A stretch of DNA of 64,000 nt from Savitreella phatthalungensis. Taxonomy: Eukaryota. The position numbers were made by a program, and so were the translations under genes. This document shows positions 2,632-25,122 of this stretch, one piece after another; position 1 is the first letter of the stretch; every line of letters begins with the position of its first letter. The stretch spans positions 310,001-374,000 of the forward strand of contig AP039692.1 of assembly GCA_051599415.1 (NCBI GenBank), given 5' to 3'. The notes beneath the pieces are model-generated. The model ran no database searches, was not told the origin of the DNA, and was given only the letters and a program-made list of their open reading frames with translations.

Positions 2632-3345
2632 TCAACCTTCATCCTCATCACTAGACTCGATTGGTAAACTGCCACGTCGTAGCGCCATCGCCGCTCCACC
2701 ATAATGCTGTTTCCGAAGCTCCTCAAACCGCCTGTGTTTCTCTGCCTCTGTTTCGGGATCGGATCCGCCATCATCCTCGTGATGGACATTATTGTGATTG
2801 TGAGTGCTTGAATCGTCCGCATTACGAGCGGTAGCCCTTGCAGCTGCCGCCTCGGTATCATCATCTGCAAGCGATACCTTCCTCCTCAACTTACTCCCAC
2901 TTCCCATCGACATCACCCCACCACCACCACCACCAACCTCACCCTCAGCACTGCCCAACTCGAGCGCCGGAATCTCACCCACACCATCCAAATCCATCAT
3001 CTCCTCACCACCGTCACCCACACCCTCATCGCCCTCACCGCTATCGACATCGGTCGATGGGTCGTACTTGGGGGCGTAGGGGGTCTTTGGTTCGGTGATC
3101 TTCATTGTGGATGAGCGTTCTTGCTCTGTCAGGTATAGATTGGCTTCGTCCCACTTGAGCCGGAGTGGGTCGGCGTCGGTGGTAGGCGTGGTGGAGGACG
3201 TAGGCGCGGAAGCAGCGTCATTCAAAAGCGGGTGAGCATTCTGCAGCGTGTGAGCCTCAGTCGAACCGTACGGATCAGCAGGCGTGTGCTCGTCCCGATT
3301 CTTCAATATAGATCGAGGTTTGAAGTCTGGAGACGTCGAAGACAT
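2632..3345 (-). CDS. GLC8: Protein phosphatase 1 inhibitor-2 family (Glc8/IPP-2)
   Basis: SILK motif (KPRSILKN), LKWDEANLYLTEQ, MKITEPKTPY and FEELRKQHY are I-2 hallmarks. First ATG is at 3345; the track start at 3387 is TTG. Confidence 0.9.
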   Translation of the reverse strand: MSSTSPDFKPRSILKNRDEHTPADPYGSTEAHTLQNAHPLLNDAASAPTSSTTPTTDADPLRLKWDEANLYLTEQERSSTMKITEPKTPYAPKYDPSTDVDSGEGDEGVGDGGEEMMDLDGVGEIPALELGSAEGEVGGGGGGVMSMGSGSKLRRKVSLADDDTEAAAARATARNADDSSTHNHNNVHHEDDGGSDPETEAEKHRRFEELRKQHYGGAAMALRRGSLPIESSDEDEG

Positions 3346-3830: not shown

Positions 3831-4218
3831 TTAGGCTGATCCTGTTGTCGTTGTCGTCACTCCTGCGCTTGTTCCTGCTGTTGCTGACGATGCAGGGTCC
3901 TGATTGTCGCCCAGGGCTACAACATCATGGAAACTTCTCCAGAGTGTACTGACGCTCTCAAACTCCTTTCCTACTGCCAGAACAGATTCAAGGTTTCGAT
4001 TGAGCTGGTTCATGTTTGTGATGAGTTGCTCCATGATCTAAAATTCAATCAAAACGGACATGTCAGTGGTGTTCGTCTAGTGAACCCTTGGTTGTGCCTC
4101 GGGGGAAACTGTAACAGGATCGAGATTCGGGGCGGAAATCACTTACCTGTCCTACTTGGGAAATCAACTGAGCGCGTTGTCTCTCAAATGGTGATTGTTC
4201 TTCGGTCTGTTGATCCAT
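3831..4218 (-). CDS. DAD1: DASH/Dam1 complex subunit Dad1; exons 4218-4147 and 4037-3831
   Basis: Removing intron 4146-4038 (GTAAGT..CTGAC..TAG) gives MDQQTEEQSPFERQRAQLISQVGQ|IMEQLITNMNQLNRNLESVLAVGKEFESVSTLWRSF, which matches the Dad1 signature. Confidence 0.9.
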
Positions 4219-4276
4219 GCTAGTTGACTCCCTCTCGTGGTTGGAATCGTGTAGACCTATGAGTGCTGCTGCTGCT

Positions 4277-4470
4277 ACTGAAGCTGAAGCTGAAGCTGAA
4301 GCTGTTGATGAGTCCTTTCACTGTGACCTGTTATGCGGGTGCGCGTGTTTGTATGCATGCGTGCGTGCGTGTATTAGCGCGTCTATGTTCTCGTGTGTTG
4401 ATGAAATTGATTGATTGATTCGATCGATTGATTGTATCGATCGGTTGATTGTATTGATCGATTGATCGAT
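4277..4470. repeat. Simple repeats: (CTGAAG)n at ~4277-4303 and a GATT/GATC-rich tract at ~4408-4470
   Basis: Seen directly in the sequence upstream of DAD1. Confidence 0.8.
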
Positions 4471-4708
4471 GGATGCATGGATGGATACAGTGTAAGTATG
4501 AGCGCTGTTTCCCTTTGCGTGTCAATGCACGGATTCACTCGATGACTTATTGAATCGTCAGGCAAGAATATTCGAGCGTGCACCGAATTCCCATGTAACA
4601 CCATACGCACATATGTCCACATGCACAAGTTTCCTCCATCCACTATATACACTAGACACACAATATCACGGGAATTCAACAGAATTCATAGAAACCCTTT
4701 CGAATTCG

Positions 4709-5010
4709 AAACCCAGACTTTTCGCATACAAAACCCAGACTTTACACTATAGGCAAGAATTATACCCATACTAAACCTAGACTAAACCCAGAAAAATCAC
4801 AGACTTTGTTTCATACCCAGACAAAACCCATACTCAATGTGAGGCAAAAGGCACGTGGGCACTCAACCCCAGACATACCTCAGATCAACCCCAGACAACA
4901 CGCCAGATTGACAGGTCTCAAGATGGAACCCATACTATACCCAGACCTACCGCAGACATACCCCACACTCACCGCAGATTCTGTAATCTAACTCAGACTA
5001 ACCCCAGACT
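4709..5010 (+). repeat. Left array of degenerate 11-bp units (consensus ~AAACCCAGACT / ATACCCATACT), about 18 copies
   Basis: C(C/G/T/A)CA(G/T)AC cores recur, often with 11-nt spacing (e.g. 4868, 4879, 4890; 4929, 4940, 4951, 4962, 4973; 4992, 5003). Confidence 0.85.
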
Positions 5011-5113
5011 AAGACACACTGAGATGGCTAAGTCAGAAATATTCTGAAACGGCTAAGTCAGAAATTGTCAAAGTCATTGAATGTTCAGGCTGCGCTGCAG
5101 TCCTAGACTGGCT

Positions 5114-5830
5114 TATATAAACTTGTCGCACACTATGTTTCACATAGACAGTATGACACCTATTCACAGAGCATTCAGTTCAACTTGGCAATCTACATCC
5201 AATGGTAATCTGTTTCACGTCATCTCGCATGGCCTGTCAAACTGAGACTGACCAAAATCTATCTGCAACATTTGCAATTGCTCTTCTATTTCTGCGCTGA
5301 TACTGTCTCAAGTTCTTCAACAAGGTCAATCTATGACACAGTGTTGTCTGCACCCAACTGTGAGTCCAATCTATCCATCCCTGTACACTACTGCTGACAC
5401 GCGCTTGCTTCCAGACGTTGTCAACCTGAAACGCACACAAAAACCTCCATCAACCTGACACAGAAAGTGTAAGTCTCTAAATCCTTTCAATCTGCAGCGC
5501 TGACACTGCCTCAGGTTCAATGTATTGGCCATCAAGCGGAAACACGCGACATACATGTGCAATCTACCCACAACAAACCTTGTAAGCTCATTCACTGTGT
5601 CAATCTGCAGCACTAATACCTTTCAGTAACGTCAGTCAGACTCAATCTATCTGAAACGAGCTTTCTATCTGCTGTGAGTAACCTCTCTTCTCATTCCACC
5701 TTACTGACAGTGTCTAGGCAGTTCGCTTTGAGTCATCAAGTCGTCATCTGTCAGAGCTGTCAACAACAATCTATGCGGAACAGACTGTATCTATCTATGC
5801 GGAACGACCTCATCAATCTCACGCACATGA
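5114..5830 (+). other. Putative multi-intron transcription unit without an intact ORF (spliced ncRNA or pseudogene)
   Basis: TATATAAA at 5114-5121. Canonical introns 5360-5414, 5469-5514, 5582-5626 and 5674-5717, each GTRAG(T/C)..CTRAY..YAG. A possible further intron ends at 5312. Confidence 0.55.
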
Positions 5831-6110
5831 CCACAGACTTTACCCAGAGTATACCCAGACTAGCCCCACATAGAGTTTATCCGAAACACCCCAGACATAC
5901 CTCAGACTGAAACTTGCACGTGGAAAATCTGCCTCAGACAAACCTTTGGAAACCTGGAAACCGCAGACTTTCCGGCCCCGCAAATTCACACCCCAGACTA
6001 AACCCAGTCAAACCGCGGTCACCAAAATCGCATACTAAACCCATACTAATCACATACTATACCCATACTAGAAAAACCCAGACTAAACCCAGACTAAAAG
6101 TCTGGGGTTC
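5830..6110 (+). repeat. Right array of the same degenerate 11-bp unit, about 15 copies, ending in a hairpin
   Basis: Cores at 5832, 5843, 5854, 5890, 5901, 5992, 6003, 6029, 6040, 6051, 6062, 6077, 6088. The terminal AACCCAGACT-AAA-AGTCTGGGGTT can fold back. Confidence 0.85.
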
Positions 6111-6820
6111 AAATTCTAATGGGAAAGGGAAATTGATTTCGATCGAGGTTCATCATAAATGTGACTTGCATAATTCAATGGCTAGCTGAGCTGAGCTATG
6201 AATGCAGGGAATTTTCAAATTGATCTGAGTTGAGTGTATCTATGTGTGATTGATCGATTGATTGACGCGTGCCTAGAAATCTGAATCTTAGACATGTTCC
6301 TCTTCTAAAATTTTCTTCCTTTCCAGAAGAACAAATTTGAACTAAATTGATATAAATTTATTCCATCATTTATCATGCATCATTATCATCATCATCATGC
6401 ATGCATACATTATATGAAAAACCATCTGCAATAGTTCTATCAAAGCTAAGCCAGCACATAGATGAACACTCCAACCACTACTATCCTCACTACTATCACT
6501 CTCACCTCTGTAGCACACCACCAAACCACACATACTCCAGCGTCACATTGCACACGACCTATCTTCCCATTCACCCACCCATCCCTCCTGACCGTCCATC
6601 CACAACCACAATCACACATCCTTCTTGGCCCTCCATACAGAATCCCAAACTCTCCGCGCATTCATCAGTCAAGAGTCCAATTTTCAACTCAGACTCTTTC
6701 CAAGTCAATACCCATCCACACACCTTCCCTCCCCTTAAAAAGTCTATACATCGTCATACCTCCATAACTTTTACTCCAGACTTCCAATCGGCCTTTTCAC
6801 ATCCTCAAGCGTCCCGTCCC

Positions 6821-6859
6821 ATGTGCCTCGTCGTCGTTGTCGCCGTCGGAGACAGATAA
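6821..6859 (+). promoter_or_regulatory. Upstream ORF (MCLVVVVAVGDR*) in the SPE2 5' leader
   Basis: ATG at 6821 and TAA at 6857-6859, 151 nt before the SPE2 ATG. It is the only ATG in the ~540 nt before the CDS. AdoMetDC mRNAs of mammals and plants are uORF-regulated. Confidence 0.5.
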
Positions 6860-7010
6860 CGATCGTGCGCGAAGGGAATTCGCACTCGCTAGCTCACATA
6901 CACACATTCACCACACAAACGCTTCCTACCCTCAATCTTCAGGGCCGAAAGCTCGGAAGCTTGACTAGTCCATTCGTTGAACCAGACTACTCCTCCTGAC
7001 CCCTTTGACC

Positions 7011-8408
7011 ATGGAGGCACCGACGACAAAGGAGATCGTCGCAGACTGGTCGCAGACAGGCTTTGAAGGACCTGAGAAACTTCTCGAGGTCTGGTTCGCC
7101 AAGTCGACCGACCGACTCCCTGCAGGGTCCAATCCACGTGGACTCAAATGCGTCCCCAGAAACGTCTGGGAGACAATGCTAGACCTGGTTCAGTGCAAGG
7201 TACTGTCCGTCATCAGCTCACCCCACGTCGATGCCTACCTGCTCTCCGAATCGTCCATGTTTGTCTTTGCTCACAAGATCATCCTCAAGACATGCGGCAC
7301 CACCACCCTCCTCGCAGGCCTACAGAGACTATTTGAGATTGCAGCCGAACACGCAGGCTTCCCTGCAGGCGCCAAGCCCTGGCGCATCTTCTACTCTCGC
7401 AAGAACTACATGTTTCCAGATGCACAAAAAGCACCACACAAGACCTGGAACGACGAAATGACCTTCCTCGACAAGTTCTTCGACAATGGAACAGCGTACC
7501 AGATTGGCCCCATGAACGGCGACCACTGGTTCCTCTACATGTACACGCGGCCCCGACTCGCACGCCGCCATCGCACCAACGAGTCCTCCTCAGACAGCGG
7601 TCTCGATGGTGACATGTCGCTCGAGTCCAGTATCGCTTCTCTCGACTCTTTCGCTCCCGCTGGCGAGGGCGCAGACGGTGCGCCACTCGAGGACGATGCC
7701 GATTTTGAGGACGAGACCGTTGAGGTCCTGATGACAGAGTTGTCCGAAGACAAGTGCCGCGTTTTCTACAAGGACACTTACTCGCCAGAGACCGTCACAG
7801 GCCACTCGAATGGTCCGATGCAGAACCCCTCTGCGGAAGTCGACCTCACAAAGTCAGAGGGCCATCTTTGGGGAATCGCAGCAGCGCGCAAGTCTGGTCT
7901 CGAGCAACTGTGCTGCGAGCAGGACATCCGACCCGTCCACTTTGCCAATGGTCGTCGCCCATCCAGTACCTCCGCACTCGACCCTGGGGCTTCGTCCCTG
8001 GACAGTAATGCGACAGTGCGCATTGGCGGCGGTGGACGCCGCGAGAGTGCGCCTGGTCCGGCGACCATGGATTCTTTCCTCTTCGACCCTCTCGGGTACA
8101 GCGGCAACTGTGTTCGCGGCCACCACTACGCCACCATTCACGTCACGCCCGAGCAAGAGTGCAGCTACGCCTCCTTCGAGAGCAACTTCCCCAACGCACA
8201 CGCCCGTCTGCCACAGATCCTAGACGCGTTCGGACCAGGCAAATTCACAGTCACTCGATTCGCCTCACGCCGGGGAATCTCCTGGGGACAAGGTCATGAC
8301 CAGTACGCTTCGTCAAAGAGACTGCCTGGGTACGTGCGTGAGGACAGAATTCATTACGAGCTGGACGGCTACATTCTAGAGTTTGAGAATTGGCGTCGTC
8401 GATTCTAG
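7011..8408 (+). CDS. SPE2: S-adenosylmethionine decarboxylase proenzyme
   Basis: FEGPEKLLEVWF, self-cleavage site YLLSE/SSMFV, ILKTCGTT and TIHVTPEQECSYASFE. ATG at 7011. Confidence 0.97.
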   Translation: MEAPTTKEIVADWSQTGFEGPEKLLEVWFAKSTDRLPAGSNPRGLKCVPRNVWETMLDLVQCKVLSVISSPHVDAYLLSESSMFVFAHKIILKTCGTTTLLAGLQRLFEIAAEHAGFPAGAKPWRIFYSRKNYMFPDAQKAPHKTWNDEMTFLDKFFDNGTAYQIGPMNGDHWFLYMYTRPRLARRHRTNESSSDSGLDGDMSLESSIASLDSFAPAGEGADGAPLEDDADFEDETVEVLMTELSEDKCRVFYKDTYSPETVTGHSNGPMQNPSAEVDLTKSEGHLWGIAAARKSGLEQLCCEQDIRPVHFANGRRPSSTSALDPGASSLDSNATVRIGGGGRRESAPGPATMDSFLFDPLGYSGNCVRGHHYATIHVTPEQECSYASFESNFPNAHARLPQILDAFGPGKFTVTRFASRRGISWGQGHDQYASSKRLPGYVREDRIHYELDGYILEFENWRRRF

Positions 8409-11312: not shown

Positions 11313-11357
11313 GTGATTGATTGATTTGATTGATTGATTTATTTGATTGATTGATTG
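11313..11357. repeat. Imperfect (GATT)n microsatellite
   Basis: Seen directly in the sequence, upstream of the 79-aa gene. Confidence 0.8.
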
Positions 11358-11952
11358 ACTGATACTGTAGTGCAGATGCAGCTAGGGTGACAGTGATGTA
11401 TGTGCTTTCCACTGGAACACTCTACTAGTAGTATAAACTATAACTACGACATCCACTAATTACCCATACGCACATATACTCAAATCTCACTGGCGTTCTG
11501 AACCCTGACGCCTGCTCACTTCACTCAGACACTCATCCACTCATACACCTACTCAATCAATTACTTGAACTGTATCTGAAGAAATCATTTCTAGATCCAT
11601 TTTCCTCATTCAGAATGAGCCTGAAGTGTGATTGGCTAGAATGGGACATAGAACATCGTCATTGACGTCATCAGATCACATTTCATATTTGTTAGACTGC
11701 AAATAGATATCATATATCCACATATATATGTATATATATACATACATACAATTGTATGAAATCTACGTACACTGATCAATCAGACCATCAACCTGCACGT
11801 GCAGTATAGAAACTTCTAAGTCGTGTGGCAAGCAGGCTACACATATACCCGTAGGTACACACTCTAAGGACTGATGGAATCATCAAGTCACCTAGTCACC
11901 GAGTCATCGAGTCATAACATGGAAATGATAGGTAGAAAGAACGAAAAGAGAG

Positions 11953-13678: not shown

Positions 13679-15072
13679 ATGTCAGGTATCGACGAGTTTG
13701 TTGGCATCACTGGCGCATTGACTACGCAGGCTGATTTCTTTCTCAAGTCAGCAAATGGTGACCTTGCTGTATGACTCGGCCTTTTTCCCCATTCATTTCA
13801 GCCTCACTAACCACACATCCAGCAAGCACTAGAGCTTTTCTATGCGGAGCATGGCGGAGACGACGCTCGCTCAGCCTCGAGTGCAGACGCTGGCGGTACC
13901 GGAGAGCGTGTGGGATCTGCTGGTGTTGGCGAGATAGGTCGACCGTCTAGCGGATCGTCTGTGAATGGTGGTGGTGGTGGTGGAAGAGCTTCTAAATCAT
14001 CGTCGTCACGGCGTACGGGTCTAGCTACGTTCTCAAGTCTGCGTGATGCAGAAGAGGAGGATGACGACGATGATGAGAAGCCGGCAGAGTTCTATACGGG
14101 TGGAGAGAAAAGCGGACTCGGCGTGATCGACCCTAACAAAGCACGAAGACAGCAGGGAACAGGAGGTGCCGGCACATCGGCAGGTGGGTCTGCAGGACCA
14201 CAAGACCTTCTCGAACAGATTCTACGGAAAGCAGCAGCGTAAGTCCATACTTTGACTCCTACGGCTACAAGAGATTCACGACAGCTGACACAGTTGACAG
14301 AGGTGGTTCGAATGGTCCAGGAGAGGAGGATGAGGATAGTATGGCAGGTGGATCAGGTGGTCGCTCTGCATTTAGAGGCTCTGGCTATACGCTGGGTGGC
14401 GACGAGACTGAATCGAGAAAGGTGGAGGATCCGAACGAGCCACTTCGCCGGCTGCTTGCGCAGCGCCCGCAGGAGGTAAAACGGGTGTTGAAGCTGTGGC
14501 GGAATGGGTTCTCCGTGGATGACGGGCCACTCTACAGATTTGACGATCCTGCCAACAAGGCGTACCTGGAGCAGATCAACAACGGCCGCGCACCACTCGA
14601 GGTGCTCAATGTCGAGTACGGTCAGCCGGTGACAGTCCACGTCGAGAAACGCTCTGACGAAGACTACACACCACCGCCAAAGACGCATAAACCTTTCGAG
14701 GGCAAGGGTCACCGCCTAGGCGCGGAGATTCCACCTCGTCCTGAACCCGTAAATCCACCAACGTCCGCAGCGGAACCCACCTCAGCGGGGTCAAAAACGA
14801 AGACGCCGCAGGCAGACGTGGACGAATCCAAGCCGACGACGACAGTCCAGGTACGGATGGCGTCTGGTGGTCGCCTGGCTCTGCGATTGAATACAACCCA
14901 CACGATTGCTGACTTGTATGCGCTCGTGTCAACGGCCGATAACGAGTCTGGGTCTACTCGAGATTTTGTCCTCCTGACTCCATTCCCAAGAAAGGAGTTT
15001 GCAAAGGACGATACAACGACGGTCGAAACAGCAGGACTTCTAAAAGGCGTCGTCCAGCAAAAGTACCTGTGA
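13679..15072 (+). CDS. SHP1: Cdc48/p97 cofactor p47 (UBA-SEP-UBX); exons 13679-13768, 13823-14238, 14301-15072
   Basis: Introns GTATGA..CTAAC..CAG and GTAAGT..CTGAC..CAG keep the frame. SEP domain (LWRNGFSVDDGPL), SHP boxes (FRGSGYTLG, FEGKGHRLG) and a UBX domain with the FPR loop. Confidence 0.93.
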
Positions 15073-22547: not shown

Positions 22548-24692
22548 ATGTCGGCGCTCGCAAGTCTGCTGCCTGCGCCGAAGTACAAGACAAAGCAGCG
22601 CAAAAGCAGATGGGATGACTCTCCAGAGCGTGATGCACTCTCGAATGAAAGCGCCTTTGGAGCTACAGCAGATGCCAGCACTGCTGAGTCAAGTAAAAAT
22701 AGTGGCACGACTGTCACACGCGCTATTGGAACACAGGCGCCTGAATATGGACGCCGTCGAAATTGGCGACCAAGCTCAGATGACGTATTTGGCGATGGCG
22801 GTGCATATCCCGAGGTGCCAATAGCGCAGTATCCTCGCGGCATGGGTCGCGAGTCTCAGACACAACAACAAAGTGGAAAGTCGCTTGCACTGCAGCTCAC
22901 GAATAGCGGCAAGGTCGACTACAGCGTTATTGCTCGCCAGGGCCAATCAGAAGACAAGATCATCCATTCTAGCTACAAGGATCTGATTCCACTTCGAAGC
23001 AGAGCGGATGCAGGAGAGATAAGTCTGGAAAAGCCAAGTGAGGAAGAAGTGCAGGAGACAGCCGAGCGCACAGGAGCGGCCTTGCAACGACTCGTGCAAG
23101 GACAATTGGCCGCAGAGCGACCGAAGACACTGGCAGGAAGAGCACAGAATCGAAATGCTCCTACATATGTCAAATACACTCCGGCTGCTGGTCAGATGGG
23201 TGACCCTGACTCGCCTCGGGAAGCACGGATGATTAAGATGGTCGAAATGCCGGTCGACCCAATGGAGCCACCGAAGCACAGACATCGCAAAGTGCCCCGT
23301 GGGCCTGGCTCACCCCCGCCTCCAATTATGCACTCGCCTCCGCGCAAGATTACGGTCGAAGAGAAAGCAGACTGGATCATTCCTCCAGCCATTTCGAACT
23401 GGAAAAATCCACACGGCTACACAGTGCCACTGGACAAGCGGCTAGCCGCGTCTGGCCGCGGCGCTGAGCTTGAGGATACGCGTGTCAACGACAGATTTGC
23501 CCAGCTCAGCGAGGCCTTATTCGTTGCCGAGAAGCAGGCGAGGGAGGAAGTGCATACGCGGAATCTGATGAAGCAGCAACTTGCAGACAAAGAGCGAGAC
23601 GAGAAAGAGGAGCGATTAAGGGAACTGGCGCAACGTGCTCGGCACAACAGAGCTCAACTCTATGACTCCCCACCGCCTCCAGTGCGCGGACGTCCACGCT
23701 CGACAACGCCGCCTGCAGCGTATCGCGGAATGGCCTCAGCAATTCGCTCGCCTTCACCGAAACGATCATTCCGAAGCCCCACACCTGAACGTCGGCGGCA
23801 GAGATCGCCACAGCGATCTAGGCGAGACTCGCGCAGGCGAGATTCCTATATCGATGAAGACGACGATCGATCGCGCAGACGTCGACGAAGTCCATCAACC
23901 TCCCGCTCACGATCTCGTTCGCCACCACCACGTCGTCGTGCGAGACGATCGAGCTACGACGATCAATCAGAAGACTCTGAGGACGACCGGGAGGCTGCAC
24001 GTGCTCGCGATCGGATTCGCAGGGAGCGTGTGGCTGAAGCTGAGCGAGCGATGCGGATGAGCAGGATGAAGCGCGACAGGTATGATCGCGACCGTGACCG
24101 TGATATCTCGGAACGCGTCGCGCTAGGCAAGTCTGCGACCGATCCGGCTGACGGCTCAAAGGAGACACAATTCGACCAGCGTCTGTTCAACCGCGCGGCA
24201 GGCGTACCAGGTCTCGGTCAGGGTGACGACACTTTCAGTCTGTACGACAAGCCTCTATTTGCGAATCGCGATGCAGCACAAGCAATTTATGCACCGTTCA
24301 AAGGTGCCCGAGGTGGCGCCGGTCTTGGTGCTGGAGGCGCGGATGAGGAGACCGTGGAGAGTGTGACTCGCGGTGGCAGATTCGAAGCCCTTGGACAAGC
24401 AAGTCACGGATTCAAGGGGCCGAACGACTCTGCAGCACTACCACAGCGCGATGGACCAGTCCAATTCGAGCGTGACGAGACAATTGATCGCCCAGACAAC
24501 GCAGCAGCGTATGAGGCAGACCGCGCACGAGAAAGGGACATCGCAAGCGTCAATGATCTCGTCGATCAGGTCAGTCGCGAGACGGCTGCAGCAGCCGCAG
24601 CTGCCACCAAGTCTCAGCAAGAGAAGACGCGGAAGCAGCAGCAGCAGAGTACCAGTCGCTGGCACAGAGGAGATGACTATCACGCATCATAG
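22548..24692 (+). CDS. PRP45: Spliceosome component Prp45/SKIP (SNW domain)
   Basis: FGDGGAYPEVPIAQYP, DPMEPPK, IPPAISNWKNPHGYTVPLDKRL and DQRLFN. ATG at 22548. Confidence 0.96.
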   Translation: MSALASLLPAPKYKTKQRKSRWDDSPERDALSNESAFGATADASTAESSKNSGTTVTRAIGTQAPEYGRRRNWRPSSDDVFGDGGAYPEVPIAQYPRGMGRESQTQQQSGKSLALQLTNSGKVDYSVIARQGQSEDKIIHSSYKDLIPLRSRADAGEISLEKPSEEEVQETAERTGAALQRLVQGQLAAERPKTLAGRAQNRNAPTYVKYTPAAGQMGDPDSPREARMIKMVEMPVDPMEPPKHRHRKVPRGPGSPPPPIMHSPPRKITVEEKADWIIPPAISNWKNPHGYTVPLDKRLAASGRGAELEDTRVNDRFAQLSEALFVAEKQAREEVHTRNLMKQQLADKERDEKEERLRELAQRARHNRAQLYDSPPPPVRGRPRSTTPPAAYRGMASAIRSPSPKRSFRSPTPERRRQRSPQRSRRDSRRRDSYIDEDDDRSRRRRRSPSTSRSRSRSPPPRRRARRSSYDDQSEDSEDDREAARARDRIRRERVAEAERAMRMSRMKRDRYDRDRDRDISERVALGKSATDPADGSKETQFDQRLFNRAAGVPGLGQGDDTFSLYDKPLFANRDAAQAIYAPFKGARGGAGLGAGGADEETVESVTRGGRFEALGQASHGFKGPNDSAALPQRDGPVQFERDETIDRPDNAAAYEADRARERDIASVNDLVDQVSRETAAAAAAATKSQQEKTRKQQQQSTSRWHRGDDYHAS

Positions 24693-24724
24693 GCACTTGG
24701 AGCATGTATATTAAAATGATGACG

Positions 24725-24814
24725 ATGACAATGACAATGACAATGACAATGACAATGACAATGACAATGACAATGACAATGACAATGACAATGACAATGA
24801 CAATGACAATGACA
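24725..24814. repeat. Perfect (ATGACA)15 hexanucleotide microsatellite
   Basis: 15 exact copies starting 32 nt after the PRP45 stop codon. Confidence 0.97.
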
Positions 24815-25122
24815 ACTATCGTGGCACTGGAGATTATAGCGCCGGGTTTTAAAGGTAGATGCGGCCGTGTCAACGTTGTCAACGGTACGTGGCTCCCCAT
24901 ATCTCTGTGTCTGTGAGACTAATTCTTGTCCACACAATCCGAGTCACGTGAAGGTGCAGCGGCACGTTAAAAAAAGATGCATGATCGAGACTGAGGAAGA
25001 CAAAAGGACACAAAGACACAGAGTCCCGAGTCAGTCGTTGAGGCTATTGTGCACACAGACTAAGGTCACCTTGACACTTACTAAAAGGTCAGAAAATCAT
25101 TGAATCAGGCGGCTAGCTGGAA

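Follow-up and report, generated by a model that had tools for sequence, protein, structure and literature searches.

A cluster of short consensus introns upstream of an S-adenosylmethionine decarboxylase gene in an intron-poor fungus: a candidate spliced non-coding RNA

Several known kinds of transcription unit resemble, each in part, the locus described here. Tandem interfering lncRNAs are found in fission yeast, and budding-yeast SRG1-SER3 is a further case; the members of this class are not noted for multiple introns. Non-coding snoRNA host genes (the GAS5/UHG type and the fungal snoRNA clusters) are multi-intron and ORF-less. Like the unit that we propose, they yield a multi-intron Pol II transcript that has no conserved ORF, and what counts is the splicing, not the exons. 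In fission yeast, the promoters of the tandem lncRNA genes combine a TATA box with an element further upstream (PMC5769750, PMC7470944), and in the prt-pho1, nc-tgp1-tgp1, and prt2-pho84 pairs the metabolic gene is preceded by a co-oriented non-coding unit that a TATA box drives (PMC5769750, PMC7470944, PMC4911910, PMC4255232). Introner-like elements of fungi are related copies of short spliceosomal introns; one study describes hundreds of copies in coding genes, a length greater than that of regular introns, and a stable predicted structure (PMC3609843).

The DNA that we analyzed is a single stretch of 64 kb (referred to below as the window), and its content was that of an intron-poor, yeast-like ascomycete near Taphrina and Protomyces. 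This Taphrinomycete-like host shares a subphylum with fission yeast. The unit of interest lies at 5114-5830, and it has the layout of a tandem lncRNA: it is non-coding, it precedes a metabolic gene with which it shares its orientation, and it has its own TATA box. Two features set it apart from the fission-yeast tandem lncRNAs. There was no exact match to the HomolD box near the unit (all seven matches in the window were elsewhere), and the Mmi1-type hexamer was not enriched, with 5 occurrences observed versus 2.35 expected and with 83 of 1,000 shuffles reaching 5. The smut-fungus lncRNA literature yielded nothing on such a unit. We propose that Pol II transcribes the stretch as an independent unit and that the product is a spliced, non-coding RNA of the lncRNA kind, and we regard the chances for and against this proposal as evenly balanced.

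The unit occupies the 2.8-kb intergenic region between Dad1 and AdoMetDC, and this region is flanked by diverging genes. The genes in the neighborhood were as follows:

85-2592: XPB helicase; best named match in Taphrina deformans (79% identity), next tier at about 71%
2632-3345, minus strand: IPP-2 (protein phosphatase inhibitor 2), between XPB and Dad1; Pfam match IPP-2
3834-4222, minus strand: DASH subunit Dad1, the left neighbor; two exons; PF08649, E 4e-18
7011-8408, plus strand: AdoMetDC (S-adenosylmethionine decarboxylase), the right neighbor; PF01536; co-oriented with the unit

The ATG of Dad1 is at 4222, and its intron (4038-4150) is 113 nt long. AdoMetDC showed 51% identity to Protomyces, and two other relatives reached 66%. 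The protein is 465 aa long here versus 374-388 aa in relatives of about 50% identity (Protomyces-like ones included) and 447-456 aa in the two relatives at 66%; the surplus looks like a low-complexity insert in the middle of the protein that is rich in Ser, Asp, and Ala.

In two relatives, the XPB and AdoMetDC matches were on same-sized contigs in each (26,997 nt and 6,957 nt), which suggests that the XPB-AdoMetDC neighborhood is conserved in relatives, if each pair is one contig. If the 6,957-nt contig carries both genes, the gap between XPB and AdoMetDC is at most about 3.5 kb there versus 4.4 kb here, and the 1.43-kb block in which the unit lies may therefore be absent from that relative and hence be young. 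This possibility is one of the points against the proposed lncRNA. A metagenome scan with AdoMetDC found one related locus, which at 36% identity is much too remote for a comparison of the spacer; this locus had no likeness to the unit and no intron cluster.

The elements of the unit and of its putative promoter were as follows, all on the plus strand:

5026-5065, plus strand: GGCTAAGTCAGAAAT, present twice without a mismatch, the copies 25 nt apart and 49-88 nt before the TATA box; possible promoter-proximal element
5114-5121, plus strand: TATATAAA, TATA box, read directly from the sequence
5150-5359, plus strand: inferred first exon, placed by layout, with the start guessed at about 30-40 nt past the TATA box; the weak intron at 5205-5312 may split it
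5205-5312, plus strand: candidate for a fifth intron, with a length of 108 nt; donor GTAATC (weak), GCTGAT at 5296-5301, AAG at 5310-5312
5360-5414, plus strand: intron 1, 55 nt; GTGAGT..CTGAC..CAG
5415-5468, plus strand: exon, 54 nt; a TGA at 5427-5429 closes the first ORF
5469-5514, plus strand: intron 2, 46 nt; GTAAGT..CTGAC..CAG
5515-5581, plus strand: exon, 67 nt
5582-5626, plus strand: intron 3, 45 nt; GTAAGC..CTAAT..CAG
5627-5673, plus strand: exon, 47 nt
5674-5717, plus strand: intron 4, 44 nt; GTGAGT..CTGAC..TAG
5718-5830, plus strand: beginning of the last exon, with two exact copies of ATCTATGCGGAAC

A previous sequence-only reading of this DNA had placed a box at 5114-5121 and four introns downstream of it, separated by exons of 54, 67, and 47 nt. 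We found TATATAAA at exactly that position, and the exon sizes and all four introns were borne out, each intron having a consensus donor, branch site, and acceptor. That reading had also listed a fifth intron candidate; its signals (GTAATC at 5205, GCTGAT, and an AAG ending at 5312) are present, and the candidate fell outside our strict intron pattern. The 5' splice site of all four introns was GTRAGY, the short fungal U2-type spliceosomal signal. The distance from the A of the CTRAY branch site to the acceptor was 17, 11, 10, and 10 nt in introns 1 to 4, respectively, and the acceptors were CAG, CAG, CAG, and TAG.

The four-intron cluster exceeded chance. On the plus strand, the strict intron pattern had eight matches in 64 kb, and four of these were in the 360-nt stretch of the unit; on the minus strand, there were 10 rows in 64 kb, four of which had one donor in common. 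When 5100-5830 was subjected to dinucleotide-preserving shuffling (n = 5,000), 4,722 of the shuffled sequences contained no match, 261 contained one, 17 contained two, and none contained four. Similar results were obtained with the donor word alone. GTRAGY occurred four times on the plus strand of 5100-5830 and not at all on the minus strand, a count of four was attained in 1 of 1,000 shuffles, and all four words were the donors of the four introns, each with a branch site and an acceptor within 44-55 nt. Genes of Taphrina deformans, the nearest named relative, have 2.1 exons on average, and the mean intron length there is 78 nt (PMC3648899); the one intron per 100 nt in the unit is thus a strong outlier.

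Two properties of the introns argued against splicing of a lncRNA. First, the -1 position was T, not G, in all four donors. Second, the introns, at 44-55 nt, were shorter than the two CDS introns of the window that could be verified, the one at 14239-14300 with 62 nt and that of Dad1 with 113 nt, a comparison in which the reference set consisted of the few recognizable cases because brute-force merging of ORFs was too noisy in GC-rich DNA.

Internally, the unit consists of very degenerate tandem copies of 91-112 nt, each made up of one exon and its intron. It could be argued from this structure that the stretch is a neutral, degenerate tandem repeat of 100-112 nt in a C/A-rich promoter region, that its intron-like words arose by chance, and that neither transcription nor splicing takes place. 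The loose relatedness of the units was consistent with this explanation: U2 and U3 were the only clearly similar pair (z of about 6), and the other pairs had z values of 0.7-4.6, several of them in the range of 3-4.6. Also consistent with it were the short motifs that recur in 5000-5999 (CAATCT nine times and CTGAAAC four times) and the C-rich plus strand of 4600-7000. Introns 2 and 3 have an identical block of 12 nt in common, and this intron pair had a z value of 6.4. Because U2 and U3 reflect one duplication, the independent intron events number fewer than four, and the duplication accounts for part of the cluster, which also weakens the lncRNA proposal.

A neutral repeat was, however, difficult to reconcile with other results. 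Tandem Repeats Finder detected no array of about 100 nt in the unit, even at a score of 30, which indicates that the repeat copies are old; yet all 14 signal positions were intact in four of four units despite the divergence elsewhere. The splice signals are perfect amid exon-intron repeats that have diverged, which suggests that selection maintains splicing itself, although this is an argument from one sequence. The excess of GTRAGY words and the four full intron patterns, which were respectively rare in and absent from the shuffles described above, also spoke against chance, as did a suitably spaced and oriented consensus TATA box of a rare sequence (TATATAAA has two copies on the plus strand and none on the minus strand of the whole 64 kb). 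We therefore consider a neutral repeat to be a rather unlikely explanation of the locus.

If splicing is what is kept, the next issue is whether the introns belong to a gene that encodes, or used to encode, a protein. A decayed, intron-rich protein-coding gene would leave former CDS introns that are perhaps still spliced. When all five introns were removed, the best frame ran from the ATG at 5135 to 5870 and contained 146 codons, a single internal TGA (5427-5429), and a TAG at its end; moreover, with splicing the longest open stretch crosses three junctions and grows to 102 codons. Both findings are what a pseudogene might show. As for the stops, we confirmed that the joined exons have stops in all three frames, as the sequence-only reading had it. 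That reading had also counted two stops in the best frame; the TGA is indeed in frame, and the TAA falls in another frame.

The composition of the best frame, however, was not that of a gene. With a codon table built from the genes of the window as the reference, it had a value of -0.242 per codon, which was below all 500 real in-frame samples (0.19 +/- 0.12, minimum -0.163) and inside the intergenic range (-0.285 +/- 0.183). Its GC3 was 0.356 versus 0.617 in real genes. The window contains 13,830 codons in 20 uninterrupted ORFs of at least 350 aa. The open stretch of 102 codons was also unremarkable, since it was equaled or exceeded in 391 of 2,000 shuffles and in 177 of 2,000 random pseudo-intron removals. 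In addition, the ATG at 5135 is only 14 nt past the TATA box and is thus probably upstream of the RNA start.

Searches for relatives of the encoded peptides, in which the queries for both proteins and Pfam were all single-exon peptides, pointed in the same direction. The last-exon peptide had no homologue among 5.8 billion clustered proteins (28-90 aa). A single-exon peptide searched against 1.84 billion representatives had one match, an unrelated tandem-repeat protein with an E value of 5e-4. Four of the six short ORFs of the locus had no Pfam family, and two had sub-threshold matches only (E 0.16 and 0.24). Taken together, we find a pseudogene unlikely, though worth keeping in view.

A functional mRNA for a micropeptide was also considered, with introns that serve expression. 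The predicted spliced RNA does contain short ORFs that begin with ATG, for example, one of 37 aa from the ATG at 5153 and one of 45 aa, the longest, from the ATG at 5773, and the 37-aa ORF crosses two junctions if the intron at 5205-5312 is used. The non-coding codon usage and the Pfam and homologue searches with single-exon queries argue against this idea. Furthermore, none of the 32 splice combinations gave an ORF with a C-terminal CAAX motif of the lipopeptide-pheromone type. A micropeptide is, in our view, a distinctly improbable product of the locus. Judged by its frames, its codon usage, its homologues, and Pfam, the unit is non-coding.

The RNA was next compared with known families and with structured RNAs. 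A search of 4000-7000 against Rfam (E values up to 10) produced five matches with E values of 0.86-8.4, all far under the gathering scores and none inside 5019-5830. The introns had folding energies of -2.5 to -4.3 kcal/mol and z values of +0.37 to +1.84 relative to shuffles, meaning that they folded worse, and the exons folded no better than shuffles. The whole predicted spliced RNA was likewise less structured than its shuffles (z of +1.8 to +2.4). A mirtron, another hairpin-intron precursor, or a structured RNA was ruled out because the introns and exons are unstructured. A snoRNA host gene was discounted as well: Rfam had no snoRNA in the unit, and introns of 44-55 nt are too short to contain one. 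The unit differs from snoRNA host genes in this respect, and no box C word (TGATGA) was seen on its plus strand. Introns 2 and 3, with their common 12-nt block, are reminiscent of introner-like elements in being related copies of a short spliceosomal intron. In contrast to those elements, however, the introns of the unit are the shortest in the window, fold poorly, are confined to this locality, and are outside any ORF.

The DNA on both sides of the unit is repetitive, and the 1.43-kb block mentioned above is defined by the following features:

4695-4722 and 6096-6123: arms of an imperfect inverted repeat of 28 nt, 24 of 28 positions complementary (86%); they bound the 1.43-kb block
4700-5015, plus strand: left array of the 8-nt core [ACT]CNCA[GT]AC at an 11-nt phase, 100-415 nt upstream of the TATA box; CACGTG at 4852
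5828-6123, plus strand: second array of this 11-nt-phased core, on the right; CACGTG at 5917; its last copy is the single inverted one

The commonest form of the core is ACCCAGAC, and it is usually followed by TAA. The left array (4695-5018) contained 14 copies on the plus strand and none on the minus strand (shuffles: mean 0.73, maximum 4). The right array (5828-6123) contained 13 copies on the plus strand and one on the minus strand (shuffles: mean 0.36, maximum 3). The 810 nt between the arrays contained no copies, and 14 of the 25 spacings between neighboring copies were multiples of 11. The inverted copy at the far right pairs with the far left, and this pairing produces the 28-nt inverted repeat.

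Such ends raise the possibility that 4695-6123 is a non-autonomous mobile element, that the unit is its cargo, and that the arms are subterminal repeats bound by a transposase. The inverted repeat at the ends and the density of short repeats in both subterminal regions are compatible with a mobile element. So are the AAA on both outer flanks and the location of the block between two (GATT)n microsatellites. Subterminal repeats of transposons are usually mirrored between the two ends, whereas 27 of the 28 core copies here have the same direction. The blocks that the two arms have in common occur in different orders, and because they are not colinear, the arms are not LTRs; an LTR-type element (a TRIM or a solo LTR) was ruled out on this basis. 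No second copy of the arms, the core, or the block was found elsewhere in the 64-kb window, a transposase was absent, and a 3-nt match of AAA flanks carries little weight in A-rich DNA. In addition, an excerpt on Taphrina deformans gives a repeat content of only 1.5% (PMC3648899). We judge a mobile element to be very unlikely.

The sequence-only reading had placed the unit inside a repeat-armed element. The arms proved to be real arrays, and the idea that they are the ends of a mobile element was not borne out. That reading had left two explanations side by side, namely, a non-coding RNA that is spliced through maintained signals and a recently dead, intron-rich cargo gene of a mobile element. 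The cargo gene gained no support, given the intergenic-like codon usage, the lack of a homologue for the single-exon peptides, and the lack of a second copy in the window. Our preference is for the spliced non-coding RNA: every one of the four units has intact splice signals despite divergence elsewhere, and a coding signature is lacking.

Other simple repeats were seen in the window. Intergenic (GATT)n/(TGAT)n microsatellites are present at 4406-4486, 6241-6277, and 11314-11363; the first two bracket the block, and the stretches 4453-4481 and 6249-6277 are 79% alike. Several GAATTC palindromes are clustered at 4584-4711, at and just before the left end of the block. A near-perfect array of 16 ATGACA hexamers (24719-24815) is located just past the stop of a 714-aa ORF (22548-24689).

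The arrays have a possible counterpart in telomeric DNA. The complement of the arm unit, TTAGTCTGGGT, differs by one mismatch over 10 nt from the telomeric repeat of Yarrowia lipolytica, which an excerpt of a published account gives as TTAGTCAGGG (PMC7857110). The arms also resemble interstitial telomere-like arrays and the promoter sites of Myb-type telomere-repeat-binding factors in being one-stranded and phased by the helical turn. According to the same source, however, the telomeres of Taphrina are TTAGGG, unlike the arm 11-mer (PMC7857110), and the matches listed by a literature search with the 11-mer were primers and unrelated sequences, none on telomeres. We take the telomere-like look of the 11-mer as no more than a lead. 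A sequence-specific factor may bind the arrays, whose sites would be phased on one face of the helix.

For the spliced lncRNA that we favor, a plausible course of events would be as follows. Transcription would start about 30-40 nt past TATATAAA, near 5150. Its probable drivers would be the 15-nt repeats at 5026-5065, two exact copies that are the sole matches to GGCTAAGTCAGAAAT in the window at up to two mismatches (0 of 100 shuffles reached two), and perhaps also the phased 11-nt array upstream. Four short consensus introns, possibly five, would then be removed from the primary transcript, and the product would be an unstructured, A/C-rich RNA with no ORF longer than 45 codons. The transcript would end somewhere before, or inside, the AdoMetDC promoter. 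Splicing is perhaps needed for the accumulation or the turnover of the RNA.

The stability of such an RNA deserves comment. The stop of the first ORF (37 aa) precedes three exon junctions, so the RNA would be unstable if the host has junction-dependent mRNA decay. We count this as a point against the spliced lncRNA; at the same time, possible nonsense-mediated decay of the cytoplasmic RNA would fit a nuclear role or a role in cis. The function that we prefer is a cis action on AdoMetDC, since the unit points at the AdoMetDC promoter, which is 1.2 kb downstream. The unit perhaps acts in this way.

Spliced lncRNAs are a known kind of RNA; what is unusual here is that introns are so dense in a genome poor in them and that phased arrays lie on both sides. 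A more far-reaching interpretation is that, in a fungus whose genes have about one intron each, selection keeps a non-coding array of four or five minimal consensus introns and that the RNA is made in order to be spliced. The unit would then be a splicing-dependent cis regulator of AdoMetDC, or it would titrate or sense spliceosome or exon-junction factors, and it would be insulated or driven by the telomere-repeat-like 11-mer arrays through the binding of a Myb-type factor. We offer this interpretation as a rather improbable one.

If the locus is not expressed, it would be a curiosity of repeat evolution and a warning for gene finders that are keyed on splice signals. If the introns are really spliced, the unit would be a compact natural case in which a lineage that has shed most of its introns has kept splice signals where no coding frame exists, and it would argue for a function of splicing itself at this site. 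The position of the unit, upstream of and pointing at AdoMetDC, suggests a testable link to polyamine control. A spliced unit of this kind would also provide a small and tractable locus for the question of why intron-poor fungi keep particular introns.
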